Below are positions 9,011 to 14,290 of a DNA stretch of 22,486 nt, one piece after another (positions within the stretch are counted from its first letter, which is position 1; every line of letters begins with the position of its first letter). This DNA is from a virus. The notes beneath the pieces are model-generated. The model did not search any database. It was not told the DNA's origin and saw nothing but the letters and a program-made list of their open reading frames with translations. The position numbers were made by a program, and so were the translations under genes. The stretch is taken from the UHGV virus genome UHGV-0255042, one strand, 5' to 3'.

Positions 9011-9054
9011 GTAGATCATGCAGGTGCATGAAAACCACTACATAAAGCGGGCAG

Positions 9055-9067
9055 GCGTGGCGGGGAT
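9055..9067. other. Candidate cos (cohesive-end) site, GGCGTGGCGGGGA
   Basis: Matches the first 13 nt of the 186/P2 cohesive-end sequence as I remember it (GGCG[A/T]GGCGGGGAAAGCA...), then diverges. Recalled from memory, not verified. Confidence 0.3.
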
Positions 9068-9151
9068 ACGAGCGCGCGCAACAGGTAAACCCCTAGACTT
9101 GTTAAAATATTTGTCATATAAATCAAACATCAAACCTAAGGGAGGCAGAGG

Positions 9152-10585
9152 ATGATCCAGCCAAAAGTTTTTATATCCTATAGTTGGTCAAGTAAAACTC
9201 ATCAGCAACATATCAAAGATATAGCTGAACGATTGGCGGCAGATGGAGTTGAAACTGTCATAGATATTTATGACTTGAAAGAAGGGGATGATAAAAATTA
9301 TTACATGGAAAGAATGGTTCAAGATGAAACGGTTACGCATGTTTTAGTCATTTGTGATAAAAAATACTCAGAAAAAGCCGATTTAAGAAAAGATGGTGTC
9401 GGTGTTGAGTCGATGATAATTTCCCAGGAAATATATTCATCCGTGTCGCAGTCCAAATTTATACCATTAATATTTGAGTACAAAGATAATGGAGAGCCGT
9501 ATACTCCAATCTTTCTGAAGTCTAGAATCTATATTGATTTTTCAACGCCAGAAAAAGAAAATGATAATTGGGAACGTTTAATCAGGTTGCTTTATGGAAA
9601 ACCAGAATTTACTAAGCCACCATTAGGTAAGCCTCCGGTTTATTTAGAGCAAGACACGTCAAAACCGACGTATGAAATTCATGCAAAATTTCAAACTTTA
9701 AAATCAGCTGTCTTAAATCAAAAGCAGACATTAAAGGATTGCAGAAGGCAATTTTTAGAGGTGTGCCGAAATTATTGTATCTCACTACAAGTCGTAACAA
9801 ACCCAACTACTGAAGATTTTGCAGCGGAAGTTTTGCAAATTCATAAAGAGCTTATTGCCGTTAGGGATGCCATTACAGACTGGGTTTTACTTGAGGGTGA
9901 TACGCAGGGCGAAGACTTTTCCAAAGCACTATTACAGTTTATGGAAGTAATGTTAGCGATTAGAAATCGTCCGAAAAATGTAAATTCATATAATGAAATA
10001 TGGTTTTTACCCCATAAGATTTTTGCGTATGAAACGTTTTTATATATTTTGGCGGCTTTAATAAAAATTGAAGCTTTCCAGCATGTACATACATTACTGC
10101 ATACATCTTATTTGCTACCCGATCATATAACCAGTCCGGGAATGGAGTTTGCTAATTACAGTGAGTTATATTTAAGCTCTGATTACCTTCAAAGTAAATT
10201 GTCCCCTGAAAACTATCGACTGTATTCCCCTGTTGCTGAGTTAGTAAAGCAAAGTGCAACTAGAGATGATGTGTCTTTCGATGATTTGAAACAAGCTGAT
10301 CTTGTTGCTCTTATGATATCCTTCATTAATCCCAGTATTTTTTGGTACCCGCAAATGTTGTTGTATTCCGGGCACTATGAGAAATATCCTCTATTTACAA
10401 GAGCAATACAGCATAGAGGATTCAAGAGTATTGCAGTTATTACCGGAATCGATGATAGTAAACTTTTGGCTCAAAAGCTGACAGAGGGTGAGGCCCAGCG
10501 AAATACTAGCAACTGGTATCATTTCGGTTTTAATAGAGACTTTCTCAATCAAATGAATGTTAGTCGTCTAGATAGTATTGAATGA
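9152..10585 (+). CDS. TIR/SEFIR-like (STIR) N-terminal domain fused to an unrecognised ~320-aa C-terminal domain; candidate anti-phage defence protein
   Basis: 477-aa ORF with SD AAGGGAGG. N-terminus KVFISYSWSS ... VETVIDIYDL ... THVLVICDKKYSEKA ... FIPLIFE follows the STIR pattern. Visibly AT-rich versus the backbone. Sits between the A/SOS module and Q. Confidence 0.6.
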   Translation: MIQPKVFISYSWSSKTHQQHIKDIAERLAADGVETVIDIYDLKEGDDKNYYMERMVQDETVTHVLVICDKKYSEKADLRKDGVGVESMIISQEIYSSVSQSKFIPLIFEYKDNGEPYTPIFLKSRIYIDFSTPEKENDNWERLIRLLYGKPEFTKPPLGKPPVYLEQDTSKPTYEIHAKFQTLKSAVLNQKQTLKDCRRQFLEVCRNYCISLQVVTNPTTEDFAAEVLQIHKELIAVRDAITDWVLLEGDTQGEDFSKALLQFMEVMLAIRNRPKNVNSYNEIWFLPHKIFAYETFLYILAALIKIEAFQHVHTLLHTSYLLPDHITSPGMEFANYSELYLSSDYLQSKLSPENYRLYSPVAELVKQSATRDDVSFDDLKQADLVALMISFINPSIFWYPQMLLYSGHYEKYPLFTRAIQHRGFKSIAVITGIDDSKLLAQKLTEGEAQRNTSNWYHFGFNRDFLNQMNVSRLDSIE

Positions 10586-10592
10586 AAATTAG

Positions 10593-10614
10593 AGGGCGCT
10601 TTGCAAAGCGCTCT
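10593..10614. terminator. Bidirectional terminator between the convergent cargo gene and Q
   Basis: 16-nt perfect palindrome GCGCTTTGCAAAGCGC flanked by GAGG / CTCT, between the stops at 10585 and 10620. Confidence 0.5.
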
Positions 10615-10619
10615 CTGTA

Positions 10620-11660
10620 TTAGTTTTCAATATCTAAGGTGTAGGGCTCAAAGCGGATCACTTCTTCGCCCAGCCAGTCGTTAAGCTCCTGCAGTCGCTT
10701 CTGCAGCGGCATCAGCTCGTTGCGGACAAAGACGCGGCTGGCCTTTTCCACATCACCAAAGCCGCCGGTATTGTTGGGAATGATGCCCATCATCTGCGGC
10801 GGCACGCGGTGAGCAGCCATCATGTCATCACGGCTCACGTTCTTGATGTTCAGAAATTCATCCTTTGCCGCAACTTCCGACAACGGGATTATCTGGATGC
10901 CGTCCTTTTTACCGTTGGGCGAATACATAAACAGGTTGCGGAAGTTGCCCGGCCCTTTGGCGCTTTTCATTGCCTGGCGGATATTGTTCACGTCCTCCTG
11001 ATTCTGTGCTGCGTCGGTCATGTACATGATGAAACCCGCGTGGCTGCCGTTGATGTAATACTTCCGGCGAAACAGCGTTGCTGACTCGTTGAGCAGGGTT
11101 GACGGGATGGCGGAGAGATAGCCGGGCAGCCCGTAAATCTCCTGATTAATATCCGGTTCCAGCAGATGAAAGATGTTGCCCTGCGTAAATTCATAGGGCT
11201 GCGTGGTCATGCCATACTGCACAAACCAGTAGGTGTCGAGATCCACGCCGCGCCGTGTGTACTTCGCCAGTGCTGGCTCCAGCGAGAGAACGCCGCCGAC
11301 CCGGTTGGTGCGCTTTTCCAGATAGGCGTTACCGAACACCAGATAATCCTGGACGAAACGGGCAAAAGCCTGCTGGCTGAGCAGGCGGTGCGGGATATAG
11401 GTACTGCTGAGAATGTCACGCTTAACGGCAATCGGTGAGCTGTGATGCACGGCGGCGCGATAGGTCCGCGCCAGTCCGTCAAAGCTCACCGGCGGTTCAT
11501 ACCAGCGATCCATCTGCACGCATTCCACGTAGTTCAGCAATTCGCGTCGGTCTAACACCGGCACCGGGTCGCCAAAGCTGAACGCCTCTGCCGCAGCACC
11601 GCCTGAATTTGCGTTGTGATCTACTGCTGCGCGGTTATTCTTGTTTTTACGTTTGCTCAT
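10620..11660 (-). CDS. Q: Portal protein (P2 gpQ-like)
   Basis: 346 aa, close to the ~344 aa I recall for P2 Q; position next to the terminase, leftward late operon. Confidence 0.9.
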   Translation of the reverse strand: MSKRKNKNNRAAVDHNANSGGAAAEAFSFGDPVPVLDRRELLNYVECVQMDRWYEPPVSFDGLARTYRAAVHHSSPIAVKRDILSSTYIPHRLLSQQAFARFVQDYLVFGNAYLEKRTNRVGGVLSLEPALAKYTRRGVDLDTYWFVQYGMTTQPYEFTQGNIFHLLEPDINQEIYGLPGYLSAIPSTLLNESATLFRRKYYINGSHAGFIMYMTDAAQNQEDVNNIRQAMKSAKGPGNFRNLFMYSPNGKKDGIQIIPLSEVAAKDEFLNIKNVSRDDMMAAHRVPPQMMGIIPNNTGGFGDVEKASRVFVRNELMPLQKRLQELNDWLGEEVIRFEPYTLDIEN

Positions 11661-12382
11661 GCCGCCTGCTCCTTGTCAGTCTGGGGCCATTCGCACATAA
11701 ACAGCATTTTCCAGTCCTCTGCTGATAACTCTTTTTTCATGTCATTAAGCCATTCATCATCAAAGAGCGCGGCTCCGGTTGCGAGCGTTGCCCCGGATGC
11801 TGCAGCGTCATCAGCGGTAAAAATCATGCTGGTTGTGCTGTTGCGGGCAATCAGCTTCTTGTATTCCCGCCATGCTTCCGAGCTGGGGCTTGGGGTGGTG
11901 TAGTAGGTAGCGTGATAGCGCGCGTGCATGGACAGGCTTTTGGCGAGCGCAATCATATTTTTCGGGGAGTCCGCCCAGGCATACTCTGACACATAGACGT
12001 TTCCATGGAGCGCGGCGGCGAGACTTTTCGGCCCGATAAAATAAATGACCGCACCGTTAGGTAGTTCCAGATGCGCTTTACCTGATTTTATTTTCCCAAG
12101 GTGTGTCCAGGTTGCGGCCTGATCTATAAAGGCTGACATATAGGTTTTGACTGTCAGGGCGGATGCCGGGGTGCAGCCAAGAAAAATCTGGTTGCGTCCG
12201 GTATGCAGTGCATCGTTCAGGGCTTCGTAGGCGAAAAAGAAATCCGCGCCAGCCTGATGCATTTTTGTAAGCACACGGTTTCTGCTGCGTGCGCCGCTGT
12301 TCCATTCATGCTGGTAAGCAAAGAAAGGGCGATCTACAGGCAGGCTGGCGGTGGTCATGAGGTTAGTTGGGGTTGAGTGCAT
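11657..12382 (-). CDS. Terminase ATPase-domain paralog (241 aa): diverged, truncated, lacking the N-terminal and nuclease regions; function unknown
   Basis: Aligns by eye to the central part of the adjacent terminase: ALNDALHTGRNQIFLG vs ALIDALLTGRNQIFLS; LPNGAVIYFIGP vs LPNGAALYFLGT; HGNVYVSEYAW vs HGNLYLDEYFW; YTTPSPSS vs YFSTPSS; LFMCEW vs LLMCEF. ATGA overlaps with P upstream and Q downstream. Confidence 0.7.
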   Translation of the reverse strand: MHSTPTNLMTTASLPVDRPFFAYQHEWNSGARSRNRVLTKMHQAGADFFFAYEALNDALHTGRNQIFLGCTPASALTVKTYMSAFIDQAATWTHLGKIKSGKAHLELPNGAVIYFIGPKSLAAALHGNVYVSEYAWADSPKNMIALAKSLSMHARYHATYYTTPSPSSEAWREYKKLIARNSTTSMIFTADDAAASGATLATGAALFDDEWLNDMKKELSAEDWKMLFMCEWPQTDKEQAA

Positions 12383-14148
12383 CAGAAAATCTCCACAATG
12401 TTGCTGGTATTGGCGGCTTCGCCCTGCAGCGGTTCGTTAAACAGTGCGTGCATCGTTGCCCAGGCCAAATCTGCGTGGCTGGCTTCTTCGCTGCGGCTGG
12501 CTTCGTAGGTAGGTCGGTTGCCGCTGGCGGTGGTGGCCCGGCGGATAGCCATAAAGGACTGCGCAATGTCAATGTGTCCGGCGTCAAACTCCAGACGGCG
12601 GTGGCTGATGATGTCGTAGGCCTTGAGCACCAGGGCGTTTTTGACGTTGGGGTTGTAGACAAACTCCCGCACGGCAGGAAAGAACGCTTTCACGTTCTCG
12701 TAGACACCGTGACCGACGCCGGTCGAGTCGATGCCGATATAGGTCACGTTGTACTGCTGCGTCAGTTTTTTAATGGCGTCAGCCTGGGCGCGGAAGTCCA
12801 TCCCGCGCCACTGGTGTCGCTCCAGAATGCGGAACTTGCCGCCCGGCACGGTTGGCGGTGCCACCACCACGCACCCGGCGCTGTCACCGTTCTGCGTGCC
12901 TTTCGCCGGGTCGTATCCGATCCAGACTTCGCGCCAGCCAAACGGGCGCAGGGCCAGAGCATGAAAGTCGGTCCAGACTTCCCAACTGTCCACCATGCAC
13001 GCCTGCAGCTCGCTGAGCGGAAACACGGACGCGAGATCGTCCACAAACTCGCACATCAGTAGGTTCTGGTATTCGTCCGGGCTGTACTCCATGCGCAACT
13101 GGTCGAGGTCGAACAGGTTACAGCCGCCGCGCACCGCATCTTCCACAGTGACTATCTGGCGGTACTGTCCGTCAGGGCAGAGCAGGCCGCGCGCAAGATT
13201 GCTGTGGGTCAGGTCAATATCCACCTTGTCCGCTTTGGCGCGGCCCCGGTTAAACAGCGCACCGGACCAGAACGGATAGGCACTGTGTGTCAGGCTGGAT
13301 GGCGTGGAAAAATAGGTTTGTCGCCATTTCTTGTGAATGGCCATCCCGGAGGCAACTTTGCGCAGTTCCTGGAATTTCGGTATCCAGAAATATTCATCAA
13401 GGTACAGGTTGCCGTGGTAGCTCTGCGCCGTACGGGCGTTGGTGCCGAGAAAGTACAATGCTGCGCCATTAGGTAGCACCATAGGATCGCCTTTCAGCTC
13501 CACCTCAACTTCTTTGGCAAAGTCGATGATGTACTGCTTAAAGACGTGCGCCTGTGCCTTACTGGCAGAAAGGAAAATCTGGTTACGTCCGGTAAGCAGG
13601 GCGTCAATCAGGGCTTCACGGGCAAAGTAAAAGGTCGCGCCGATCTGGCGTGACTTCAGCAGGTTGCGGATGCGGTTGGTTTTTCCGGCTTCCCACCAGT
13701 GGCGCTGGTAGTTGAACATGGAGGAATAAAAGATTTCTTCCAGCTTCTCAATCTGTTCATCGGTGAAAACGTTCTTTTCCGGCTGACGGCGCGGGCCTTT
13801 GTTGCGGTTGGCGACGTTAGGGTTTAAGTCGGCTTCGTTGCCGCCATTGTTAAACTTGCCGATCCGCGCATGGCGCTCCGACTGGCGCGCCAGCAGGTCA
13901 ATCTCTTTGAAATCTTTCCCTTCTTTGTGCTCCTTCATAATGAGCTGGCAGTAGCGTGCGGCGGTGGTGAGCTGCATCTGATCCAGCGGCCCATAGTCAC
14001 CCCACTTGTCGCGTTTTTTCCAGCTGTGAACGGTTGCAACTTTCTCGCCCAGCATTTCAGCAATGCGGGCTACGCGGTATCCCTGAAAGTACAGCAGCAT
14101 GGCCTGCCGACGGGGATCGAGATCTGCGGGTGTCAGTGTGGTGTTCAT
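12382..14148 (-). CDS. P: Terminase large (ATPase) subunit (P2 gpP-like)
   Basis: 588 aa (P2 P is ~590 as I recall); N-terminal HTH-like region, central ATPase core; first gene of the leftward late operon. Confidence 0.9.
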   Translation of the reverse strand: MNTTLTPADLDPRRQAMLLYFQGYRVARIAEMLGEKVATVHSWKKRDKWGDYGPLDQMQLTTAARYCQLIMKEHKEGKDFKEIDLLARQSERHARIGKFNNGGNEADLNPNVANRNKGPRRQPEKNVFTDEQIEKLEEIFYSSMFNYQRHWWEAGKTNRIRNLLKSRQIGATFYFAREALIDALLTGRNQIFLSASKAQAHVFKQYIIDFAKEVEVELKGDPMVLPNGAALYFLGTNARTAQSYHGNLYLDEYFWIPKFQELRKVASGMAIHKKWRQTYFSTPSSLTHSAYPFWSGALFNRGRAKADKVDIDLTHSNLARGLLCPDGQYRQIVTVEDAVRGGCNLFDLDQLRMEYSPDEYQNLLMCEFVDDLASVFPLSELQACMVDSWEVWTDFHALALRPFGWREVWIGYDPAKGTQNGDSAGCVVVAPPTVPGGKFRILERHQWRGMDFRAQADAIKKLTQQYNVTYIGIDSTGVGHGVYENVKAFFPAVREFVYNPNVKNALVLKAYDIISHRRLEFDAGHIDIAQSFMAIRRATTASGNRPTYEASRSEEASHADLAWATMHALFNEPLQGEAANTSNIVEIF

Positions 14149-14194
14149 GGCACAAACCTACAGCCTTGAATGAAGGCTTTCCCCGCCTGCGGTT

Positions 14195-14212
14195 TGTGTG
14201 GTTGTCGGTACA
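14195..14212. promoter_or_regulatory. Late-promoter activator site TGT-N12-ACA (Ogr/B/Delta-type) in the divergent P/O promoter region
   Basis: TGTGTGGTTGTCGGTACA; centre about 55-60 nt upstream of a CATAAG -10-like hexamer (14251-14256) and 88 nt upstream of the O start. Confidence 0.5.
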
Positions 14213-14290
14213 AATACCGCGCATTGTTTCACTGCCCCCATCACCGCAACCATAAGGCTCCAGTAAGTTTTTTCTAACGGAGCACGGCTC

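Follow-up and report, generated by a model that had tools for sequence, protein, structure and literature searches.

The viral genome UHGV-0255042, a stretch of 22,486 nucleotides called the window below, carries an open reading frame (ORF) of 241 amino acids (aa) on its minus strand at 11657..12382, between the genes of a P-type large terminase (minus strand, 12382..14148) and of the portal, the Q homologue (minus strand, 10620..11660; Pfam Phage_portal). This ORF almost certainly belongs, as a divergent member, to the family named here after gene W of coliphage 186; the assignment is drawn from ORF analysis, BLASTP, Pfam, an AlphaFold2 (AF2) model and a tree. The W family itself can be described with high confidence as a stand-alone paralogue of the ATPase domain of terminase P, which had a single old origin and which a minority of P2/186-like phages retain. 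The current view is that phage DNA-packaging motors require a single ATPase, the large terminase TerL. Here, a conserved second copy reduced to the TerL ATPase domain makes up a sizeable family, with about 40 clusters at 50% identity across the Enterobacterales.

Membership of the 186 W family

A tblastn search of 50,697 phage records returned two separate matches in about 21 of them. The better of the two in coliphage 186 falls outside the terminase, in a 248-aa coding sequence (CDS; U32222 1215..1961, AAC34147), whose product is entered as 'W protein; similar to Orf12' and which lies between Orf12, the P homologue, and Orf2, the Q homologue. The 186 W protein aligns with the window W over residues 23-237, at 32-33% identity. 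The same P-W-Q arrangement is seen in PSP3 (orf2 at 1217-1963, annotated 'similar to 186 W'), in EtG (gp02) and in the Yersinia phages vB_YenM_201.16 and 56.17 (gp20), and the isolated Yersinia phage vB_YpM_MLG42 has in this position a W copy 94.6% identical to that of the window. W is also found between P and Q, overlapping both, in Pantoea, Limnobaculum, Buttiauxella and one further contig. In P2, phiCTX and HP1, P and Q are adjacent, with no W. The initial annotation of the window, made by eye, had described a 241-aa ORF between terminase P and portal Q, two genes given as neighbours in P2, and both statements hold (ORF and Pfam evidence for the former). The gene is, however, 'extra' with respect to P2 only, and is already known in the 186 group (186 W, PSP3, EtG and the Yersinia phages).

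Window W has the usual size of the family, that of a domain-only protein of ~225-255 aa, lies between P and Q with overlaps on both sides, and groups with W in the tree. It does not have the canonical Walker A (..GAT) and Walker B (..DE) of 186 W, a departure that marks a subfamily and is no bar to membership of the W family. In RefSeq, the window-type gene goes under the name 'terminase large subunit domain-containing protein', and no NCBIfam model for W was found. W genes should not carry the name 'terminase large subunit'. A known defence protein as the identity of W is ruled out by the PADLOC-DB search, which gave only a chance-level match for the window W (E 0.0087, no qualifying stretch) and no match for 186 W. 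In the record of Escherichia phage 500465-1, the W-like gene and the portal gene are each split into two CDSs; since the portal is split too, these are probably sequencing frameshifts and not biology, and the record is uninformative.

Relation to terminase P

By BLASTP, residues 21-232 of W align with residues 145-368 of the window P, with 74 identities out of 240 positions (31%, E 1e-32), in agreement with the earlier estimate of about one third identity to the ATPase core over ~200 aa. Pfam finds Terminase_6N alone in the W ORF (E 4e-13), with neither Terminase_5 nor Terminase_6C, so that W has neither the N-terminal helix-turn-helix (HTH) domain nor the C-terminal RNase H-like nuclease, as had also been noticed. 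P is full length (588 aa), with all three domains (Terminase_5, Terminase_6N and Terminase_6C, the last being the nuclease at residues 410-571) and canonical motifs, which rules out a split terminase. A recent duplication is likewise ruled out, as is a scar left by recombination with another P2-like phage, since no W is more than 38% identical to any P. In the 50,697 phage records, the best match to W outside the family reaches 36.6%. The proposal that W is an old truncated paralogue, and neither a recent duplicate nor one half of a split terminase, thus stands.

The AF2 model of W (predicted local distance difference test, 81.8; predicted template modelling (TM) score, 0.82) has as its best Foldseek match the ATPase domain of T4 gp17 (E 3e-8, TM 0.68), followed by the TerL of D6E and P74-26; the matches include the Avs3-terminase complex 8dgc_E. 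A sequence search of the PDB with the W family profile gave nothing at E <= 0.01. The additional-strand catalytic-Glu (ASCE) P-loop fold is present, with the adenine-binding motif, the P-loop Lys and the C-motif. The fused RNase H-like nuclease of a functional TerL is absent from window W, as is a Walker B of hhhhDE type with both acids. With no DNA cutting or HTH binding possible, and with a complete P alongside, W is taken not to be a terminase.

Although the overall protein identity is only 31%, one stretch of W and P is much closer in nucleotides (window 12179-12250 versus 13571-13650; 85% over 48 nt, 75% over 63 nt). It encodes EALxDALxTGRNQIFL, and the two paralogues might recombine or undergo gene conversion there.

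A rewired active site

Four motifs can be placed on the minus strand of the W gene by alignment: FAYQHEW (12302..12322), facing the YQ motif of TerL, which we take, after work on T4 gp17, to be adenine-binding; a deviant Walker A, KMHQAGAD (12242..12265; KSRQIGAT in P); the Walker B segment NVYVSE (11984..12001; NLYLDE in P), with Ser in place of Asp and the catalytic Glu intact; and the conserved TTPS (11888..11899), facing the C (coupling) motif STPS of P. The earlier reading of both Walker segments, KMHQAGAD against KSRQIGAT and VYVSE against LYLDE, was correct. A set of residues common to P recurs in every W protein or almost every one, namely F-x-Y-Q-x-x-W, R36, K40, R42, Q43, G45, A46, the TGxNQ turn, N109-G110-A111, G127, Y130, E133, W136, T159 and P164-S165 of the C-motif. 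The F, Y/F, Q and W of the adenine motif do not vary, either within the W family or in P, and E133 aligns with the catalytic Glu. Several P-invariant positions are not retained by W, namely K197, the loop T236/N237/T240/Q242 before Walker B, K264, R276 and R330. D251 and E252 of P are conserved in at least 15 of the 16 P proteins compared.

The W protein of 186 has a canonical KSRQIGAT and VYLDEF. In all W lineages outside the 186 type, the Walker-A Thr has become Asp and the Walker-B Asp a non-acidic residue. When 98 short forms and references are considered, the Walker-A Asp occurs in 61, none of which has the Walker-B Asp (S in 51, P in 4, G in 3, A in 2, L in 1), and D-E is the usual Walker-B pair of forms that carry Thr or Ser in Walker A; the figures count sequences, not evolutionary events independent of one another. 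What is seen is a coupled change that has become fixed, as opposed to drift. As read from the alignments, the exchange could correspond either to a relocated metal ligand with retained activity or to a nucleotide-binding pocket without turnover. The catalytic residues, invariant in P, vary among the short forms. Because the Walker-B position is varied and the catalytic Glu is occasionally lost (Asp in PSP3; N, Q or H in others), the balance leans towards weak or absent catalysis. In PSP3 the Glu-to-Asp change (VYLDDF) is found in a protein that nevertheless shares 91% of its residues with 186 W in the aligned columns of the ATPase domain.

Two finer proposals were considered. A hydroxyl/carboxylate swap with a specific role for Ser132 is weakened, since G, A, P and L are also found at this position. 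A trans arginine finger present in P and absent from W is not established, the Arg of GTNARTAQ in the window P being Asn in P2 and 186.

The window copy carries a further change. The P-loop Arg (codon 42, window 12257-12259), conserved in P and shared by 21 of the 23 W-like sequences in the comparison, is His in the window copy and in strain LS4 only; 95%-identical relatives (MLG42, TUM2820, clusters P0001-P0007) retain the Arg. The Arg-to-His change would make catalysis by the window copy even less likely. The window and Buttiauxella types of W have also lost ~26 residues after the C-motif. The suggestion that the active site is degenerate is therefore right in part: both catalytic-site changes are real, but they are not random decay, the Walker-A Asp being fixed in a large subfamily. 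An ATPase-dead state of window W is plausible, and can be called only that, given an unvarying YQ motif, P-loop K/R/Q/G, catalytic Glu and C-motif and a patterned Asp exchange.

Family extent, age and selection

A search of 5.8 billion proteins yielded 51 clusters of 152-254 aa, mostly 225-254 (the shorter ones being partial), with identities from 95% down to 33%. The hosts of W clusters are Escherichia, Salmonella, Citrobacter, Klebsiella, Leclercia, Phytobacter, Pantoea, Yersinia, Limnobaculum and Buttiauxella. In a profile search of 1.84 billion representatives, the ~40 clusters (50% identity) of short domain-only proteins were interleaved with full-length terminases. In a neighbour-joining tree of the ATPase domains, every W-like protein falls into a single clade that excludes all P proteins (100% bootstrap), although this is a distance method applied to long branches, where attraction is possible, and deep nodes are weak in a larger tree. 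The identity of W to P is 27-38% for every P, with no preference for the cognate one. This equal distance, together with the monophyly of W, argues for a single old duplication.

The W and P trees are incongruent: the P of Buttiauxella is P2/186-like and its W is window-like. Nucleotide identities between the window and its relatives shift along the same genes. With strain A38, they are 89-100% in P, 72-84% in W and 78-86% in Q, the shift falling near the P/W junction (~12400); with phage MLG42, they are 90-98% in W and Q and 78-93% in the 5' half of P. Such shifts and the tree incongruence point to mosaic inheritance, with exchange of the W module.

Pairwise ratios of nonsynonymous to synonymous substitution (dN/dS) are 0.10-0.41 for W, versus 0.01-0.10 for P and Q in the same pairs, and that of W stays well below 1 even at a dS of ~0.7. 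Where the P proteins are 63-98% identical, the W proteins are 33-74% identical; among the E. coli carriers, P is 96-99% identical and W ranges from 74% to 100%. W is thus under purifying selection, and its protein evolves several-fold faster than P or Q. Across 26 W sequences, 34 columns are invariant. A pseudogene is ruled out by this conservation and by the dN/dS values, which describe a gene that is functional yet less constrained than its neighbours.

The gene is uncommon in E. coli. Among 5426 complete genomes, about 1244 of which have a P2-like P/Q region, 21 carry a window-type W and 8 a 186-type W, i.e., a frequency of about 2% among E. coli P2-like prophages. Both types are found in E. 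coli ARL09/232 (NZ_CP049967.1), in two prophages located at ~1.30 Mb (window type) and ~4.27 Mb (186 type). W is also present in isolated plaque-forming phages, namely 186, PSP3, EtG and MLG42. The 241-aa and 235-aa forms of W differ by a six-residue indel, GAT(LATGAA)LF (window 11780-11800, residues ~195-201), in a low-complexity segment rich in Ala, Gly and Thr, where the confidence of the AF2 model is lower.

A second genomic location

A second group of short forms, characterized by TGRNK ... GDVYxSEW and referred to as group 2, forms a clade with 100% bootstrap that is nested in the W clade, the node joining it with 186 W and window-type W being supported at 70%. Its active site follows the GAD / SE pattern, or an intermediate one (GSS with SE or PE). 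The gene order A(+), paralogue(+), Q(-) P(-) was seen in three metagenomic contigs and, among Morganella, Proteus, Providencia and Xenorhabdus, in at least 11 prophages: the paralogue lies downstream of the replication gene A, on the strand opposite to P and Q, which are adjacent. This location falls in the cos-proximal A-to-Q region of P2-like phages, described as a defence-gene hotspot (Rousset et al., PMC9122126).

Gene organization in the window

The window is an E. coli 186-like prophage of the P2 family, with 99.7% identity over 4 kb to E. coli 2011C-3911, where the flanking order is integrase, CI, CII, Fil remnant, Dam, A, DinI-like, SEFIR, portal, W-like ORF, terminase, scaffold and capsid. 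Its 186-like character is deduced from the regulatory genes CI/CII/Fil of this 99.7%-identical prophage and from a 186-type cos, GGCGTGGCGGGGATACGAG at window 9054-9072 versus GGCGTGGCGGGGAAAGCAT in 186, the ~100 bp around it being 77% identical to the 186 cos junction.

The P stop and the W start overlap by 1 nt (TGATG), and the W stop and the portal start by 4 nt (ATGA). Of the ATGA overlaps previously reported on both sides of W, the one with the portal is confirmed, and that with the terminase has to be corrected to TGATG. A Shine-Dalgarno sequence, GGAG (minus strand, 12391..12394), lies 8 nt upstream of the W ATG, within the 3' end of P, and AAGGAG lies 8 nt upstream of the portal ATG. 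These start/stop overlaps would fit translational coupling of W to both terminase and portal. The divergent P/O intergenic region (14149..14290) is presumed, by analogy with p12/pV in the 186 annotation, to hold the late promoter driving P-W-Q. The convergent SEFIR and portal genes are 34 bp apart, and in this gap, immediately past the portal stop, a GC-rich hairpin with a 12-bp stem and T-runs on both strands (10590..10617) is, from its consensus match, a probable bidirectional terminator, in a position matching tW of the 186 annotation. A scan for an internal W promoter gave 3 promoter-like matches versus 2.1 expected, none above chance. This result and the layout of the late P-Q unit argue against expression of W from the resting prophage.

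Between cos and portal, the window carries a gene for a 477-aa SEFIR-domain protein (9152-10585, plus strand) that matches the PADLOC bSEFIR profile (E 1e-102). It occupies the cos-proximal hotspot of P2-like phages, where phiCTX has ctx.

Possible functions of W

No role has been assigned to W in the searchable literature. Our tentative preference is for a nucleotide-binding, weakly or non-hydrolysing mimic of the TerL ATPase domain, which would modulate the packaging motor of its own phage. W is read as such a mimic because the fold and the pocket are kept, the HTH, the nuclease and P-invariant residues are lost, and the Walker-B Asp is gone. The protein would retain the TerL fold and a cis nucleotide-binding pocket, without HTH, nuclease or many of the P-invariant surface and loop residues. 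In the window subfamily, the missing Walker-B Asp and the carboxylate at the Walker-A Thr position would allow nucleotide to be bound with little or no hydrolysis. W may then contact TerL subunits, the portal vertex or both by protein-protein binding, and these contacts would tune the assembly or activity of the motor, W itself neither translocating nor cutting DNA. Through its GenBank annotation as 'W protein', the 186 homologue is linked to a locus of classical genetics. The lettered genes of 186 were defined by conditional-lethal mutants.

Several points weigh against this interpretation. U32222 puts the gene label W on the portal CDS too, so that the classical W mutations may map outside the W ORF, where amber mutations would in any case be polar on the portal. 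No experiments on any W protein were found in the searchable literature, and nothing relevant turned up there on shortened or duplicated terminases among P2-like phages. P2 and most of its relatives package their DNA without W, which is carried by ~29 of the ~1244 E. coli genomes that have a P2-like P/Q region. Fast evolution, patchy occurrence and mosaic inheritance are features commoner in conflict genes than in components of a motor. The location of group 2 downstream of A means that the family is not tied to translational coupling with terminase and portal. Finally, the canonical Walker A and B of 186 W suggest that some family members may be active ATPases.

This last point leads to the rather unlikely case of a genuine second packaging ATPase, whose hydrolysis of ATP would help to power cos cleavage or translocation or provide a checkpoint for either, with Mg2+ coordinated by the Walker-A Asp in place of the lost Walker-B Asp. 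Besides the fully canonical 186 W, the GAD subfamily keeps the catalytic Glu, the P-loop Lys, the Gln and the C-motif, as well as the Arg outside the window lineage, and the two Asp positions are mutually exclusive, as would be seen for a relocated metal ligand. However, a Walker-B position that takes S, G, A, P or L has no specific role there, the catalytic Glu is gone in several short forms (Asp in PSP3; N, Q or H elsewhere), and the window copy combines the P-loop Arg-to-His change with loss of the P-invariant loop residues before Walker B. The opposite extreme, a decaying, functionless relic of the duplication, would account for a gene that is rare in E. coli, dispensable in P2 and less constrained than its neighbours; it is effectively refuted by an intact frame of 225-254 aa from 95% to 33% identity across eight genera, Escherichia to Buttiauxella, by a dN/dS well below 1, by the 34 invariant columns in 26 sequences and by the ~40 clusters at 50% identity.

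Two further explanations involve conflict. It is unlikely that W serves as an immune decoy for terminase-sensing Avs/NLR immunity, and distinctly unlikely, in the more specific form of this proposal, that the W family consists of pseudo-terminases presenting the TerL ATPase surface and pocket to Avs1-3/TIR-NLR sensors, thereby blunting abortive infection. Binding of Avs2 to a TerL ATPase domain was predicted and shown (PMC11564622), and W mimics, at the fold level, exactly the TerL domain contacted by Avs, with 8dgc_E among its fold matches. A decoy would also be consistent with retained pocket residues alongside drifting catalysis-related and surface residues, with fast, patchy and mosaic evolution, and with the sister lineage of the Morganellaceae in the A-to-cos defence/counter-defence hotspot. 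In the work of Rousset et al. (PMC9122126), 186 escaped a P4-borne TIR-NLR that restricted P2 along with four P2-like isolates, and this insensitive 186 carries W, which is a single anecdote. Against a decoy, a mimic that binds Avs might activate it instead of blocking it, W is made late alongside the terminase and has no head start, there is no PADLOC match, and terminase decoys were not found in the literature searched. It is very unlikely that W acts as an interference weapon, one of the roles suggested in the initial annotation, entering the terminase rings of rival P2-like phages as a dead subunit that would poison packaging, or limiting the satellite P4 in this manner. A truncated ATPase-only paralogue with altered catalytic residues and a fast, mosaic evolution would suit such a use, and terminase-targeting exclusion is known elsewhere (Listeria TerI). 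However, W is a late-operon gene with no internal promoter above chance (3 versus 2.1 expected); it would be absent from the resting lysogen and made only while its own terminase works, it would have to spare its own P, which differs little from those of competitors (96-99% identical among E. coli carriers), and it has no defence-family match.

Modulation of the packaging motor, our preferred reading, would, if true, define a new class of packaging accessory factor. A decoy, if true, would be the first described counter-measure against terminase-sensing immunity, as far as the literature was searched, and would explain the fast evolution, the patchiness, a pocket that is preserved although the catalytic residues are labile, the move of group 2 to its other site and the insensitivity of 186 to a TIR-NLR that restricts P2. 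W is already known as an annotation in 186 (since the 1990s) and in PSP3. The size of the family, the coupled Walker-A/Walker-B exchange and the alternative genomic position appear to be undescribed in the searchable literature. Most family members have the coupled rewiring of the P-loop site, and the gene is found in either of two genomic positions. The exchange is in itself a natural experiment on Mg2+ coordination in P-loop NTPases.

Comparison with known systems

The closest counterparts of window W are 186 W, PSP3 orf2 and EtG gp02, each a lone TerL ATPase domain of ~250 aa encoded between the P and Q homologues and overlapping both. Late-operon position and tree clade are also shared by window W with 186 W and its relatives. 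The differences lie in the motifs, KSRQIGAT and VYLDEF in 186 W versus KMHQAGAD and VYVSEY in window W, and in the ~26 residues after the C-motif, which 186 W has and the window type does not. The gp20 proteins of Yersinia phages 201.16 and 56.17, encoded at the same position and 38-40% identical to window W, look like intermediates in their alignment: they already have the Walker-A Asp (KSRQIGAD), the Walker-B Asp is gone (VYLGEY), and the longer, 186-W-like region after the C-motif is retained. The group 2 proteins of the Morganellaceae (e.g., P0097, P0119, P0146) are domain-only with a GAD / SE site, like window W, but their genes lie downstream of A, on the other strand.

The ATPase of P2 gpP and 186 Orf12 resembles window W in its fold, its adenine-binding YQ, its P-loop K/R/Q/G, its catalytic Glu and its C-motif. 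Window W differs from P in the absence of the Terminase_5 HTH and of the RNase H-like nuclease, in the Walker-A Thr-to-Asp and Walker-B Asp-to-Ser replacements, in the loss of many P-invariant loop residues, and in a far greater divergence between the same phage pairs.

The interference protein Ppi of the Staphylococcus aureus pathogenicity islands (SaPI) is directed at terminase. TerI of Listeria prophages is a terminase-targeting exclusion system (bioRxiv 10.1101/2025.02.27.640495). The likeness of W to both is conceptual only, all being small phage or satellite proteins acting, or in the case of W possibly acting, on terminase. TerI and Ppi are unrelated to W in sequence and fold, they are expressed by a prophage or satellite to block other phages, and neither is a terminase paralogue, as W is.

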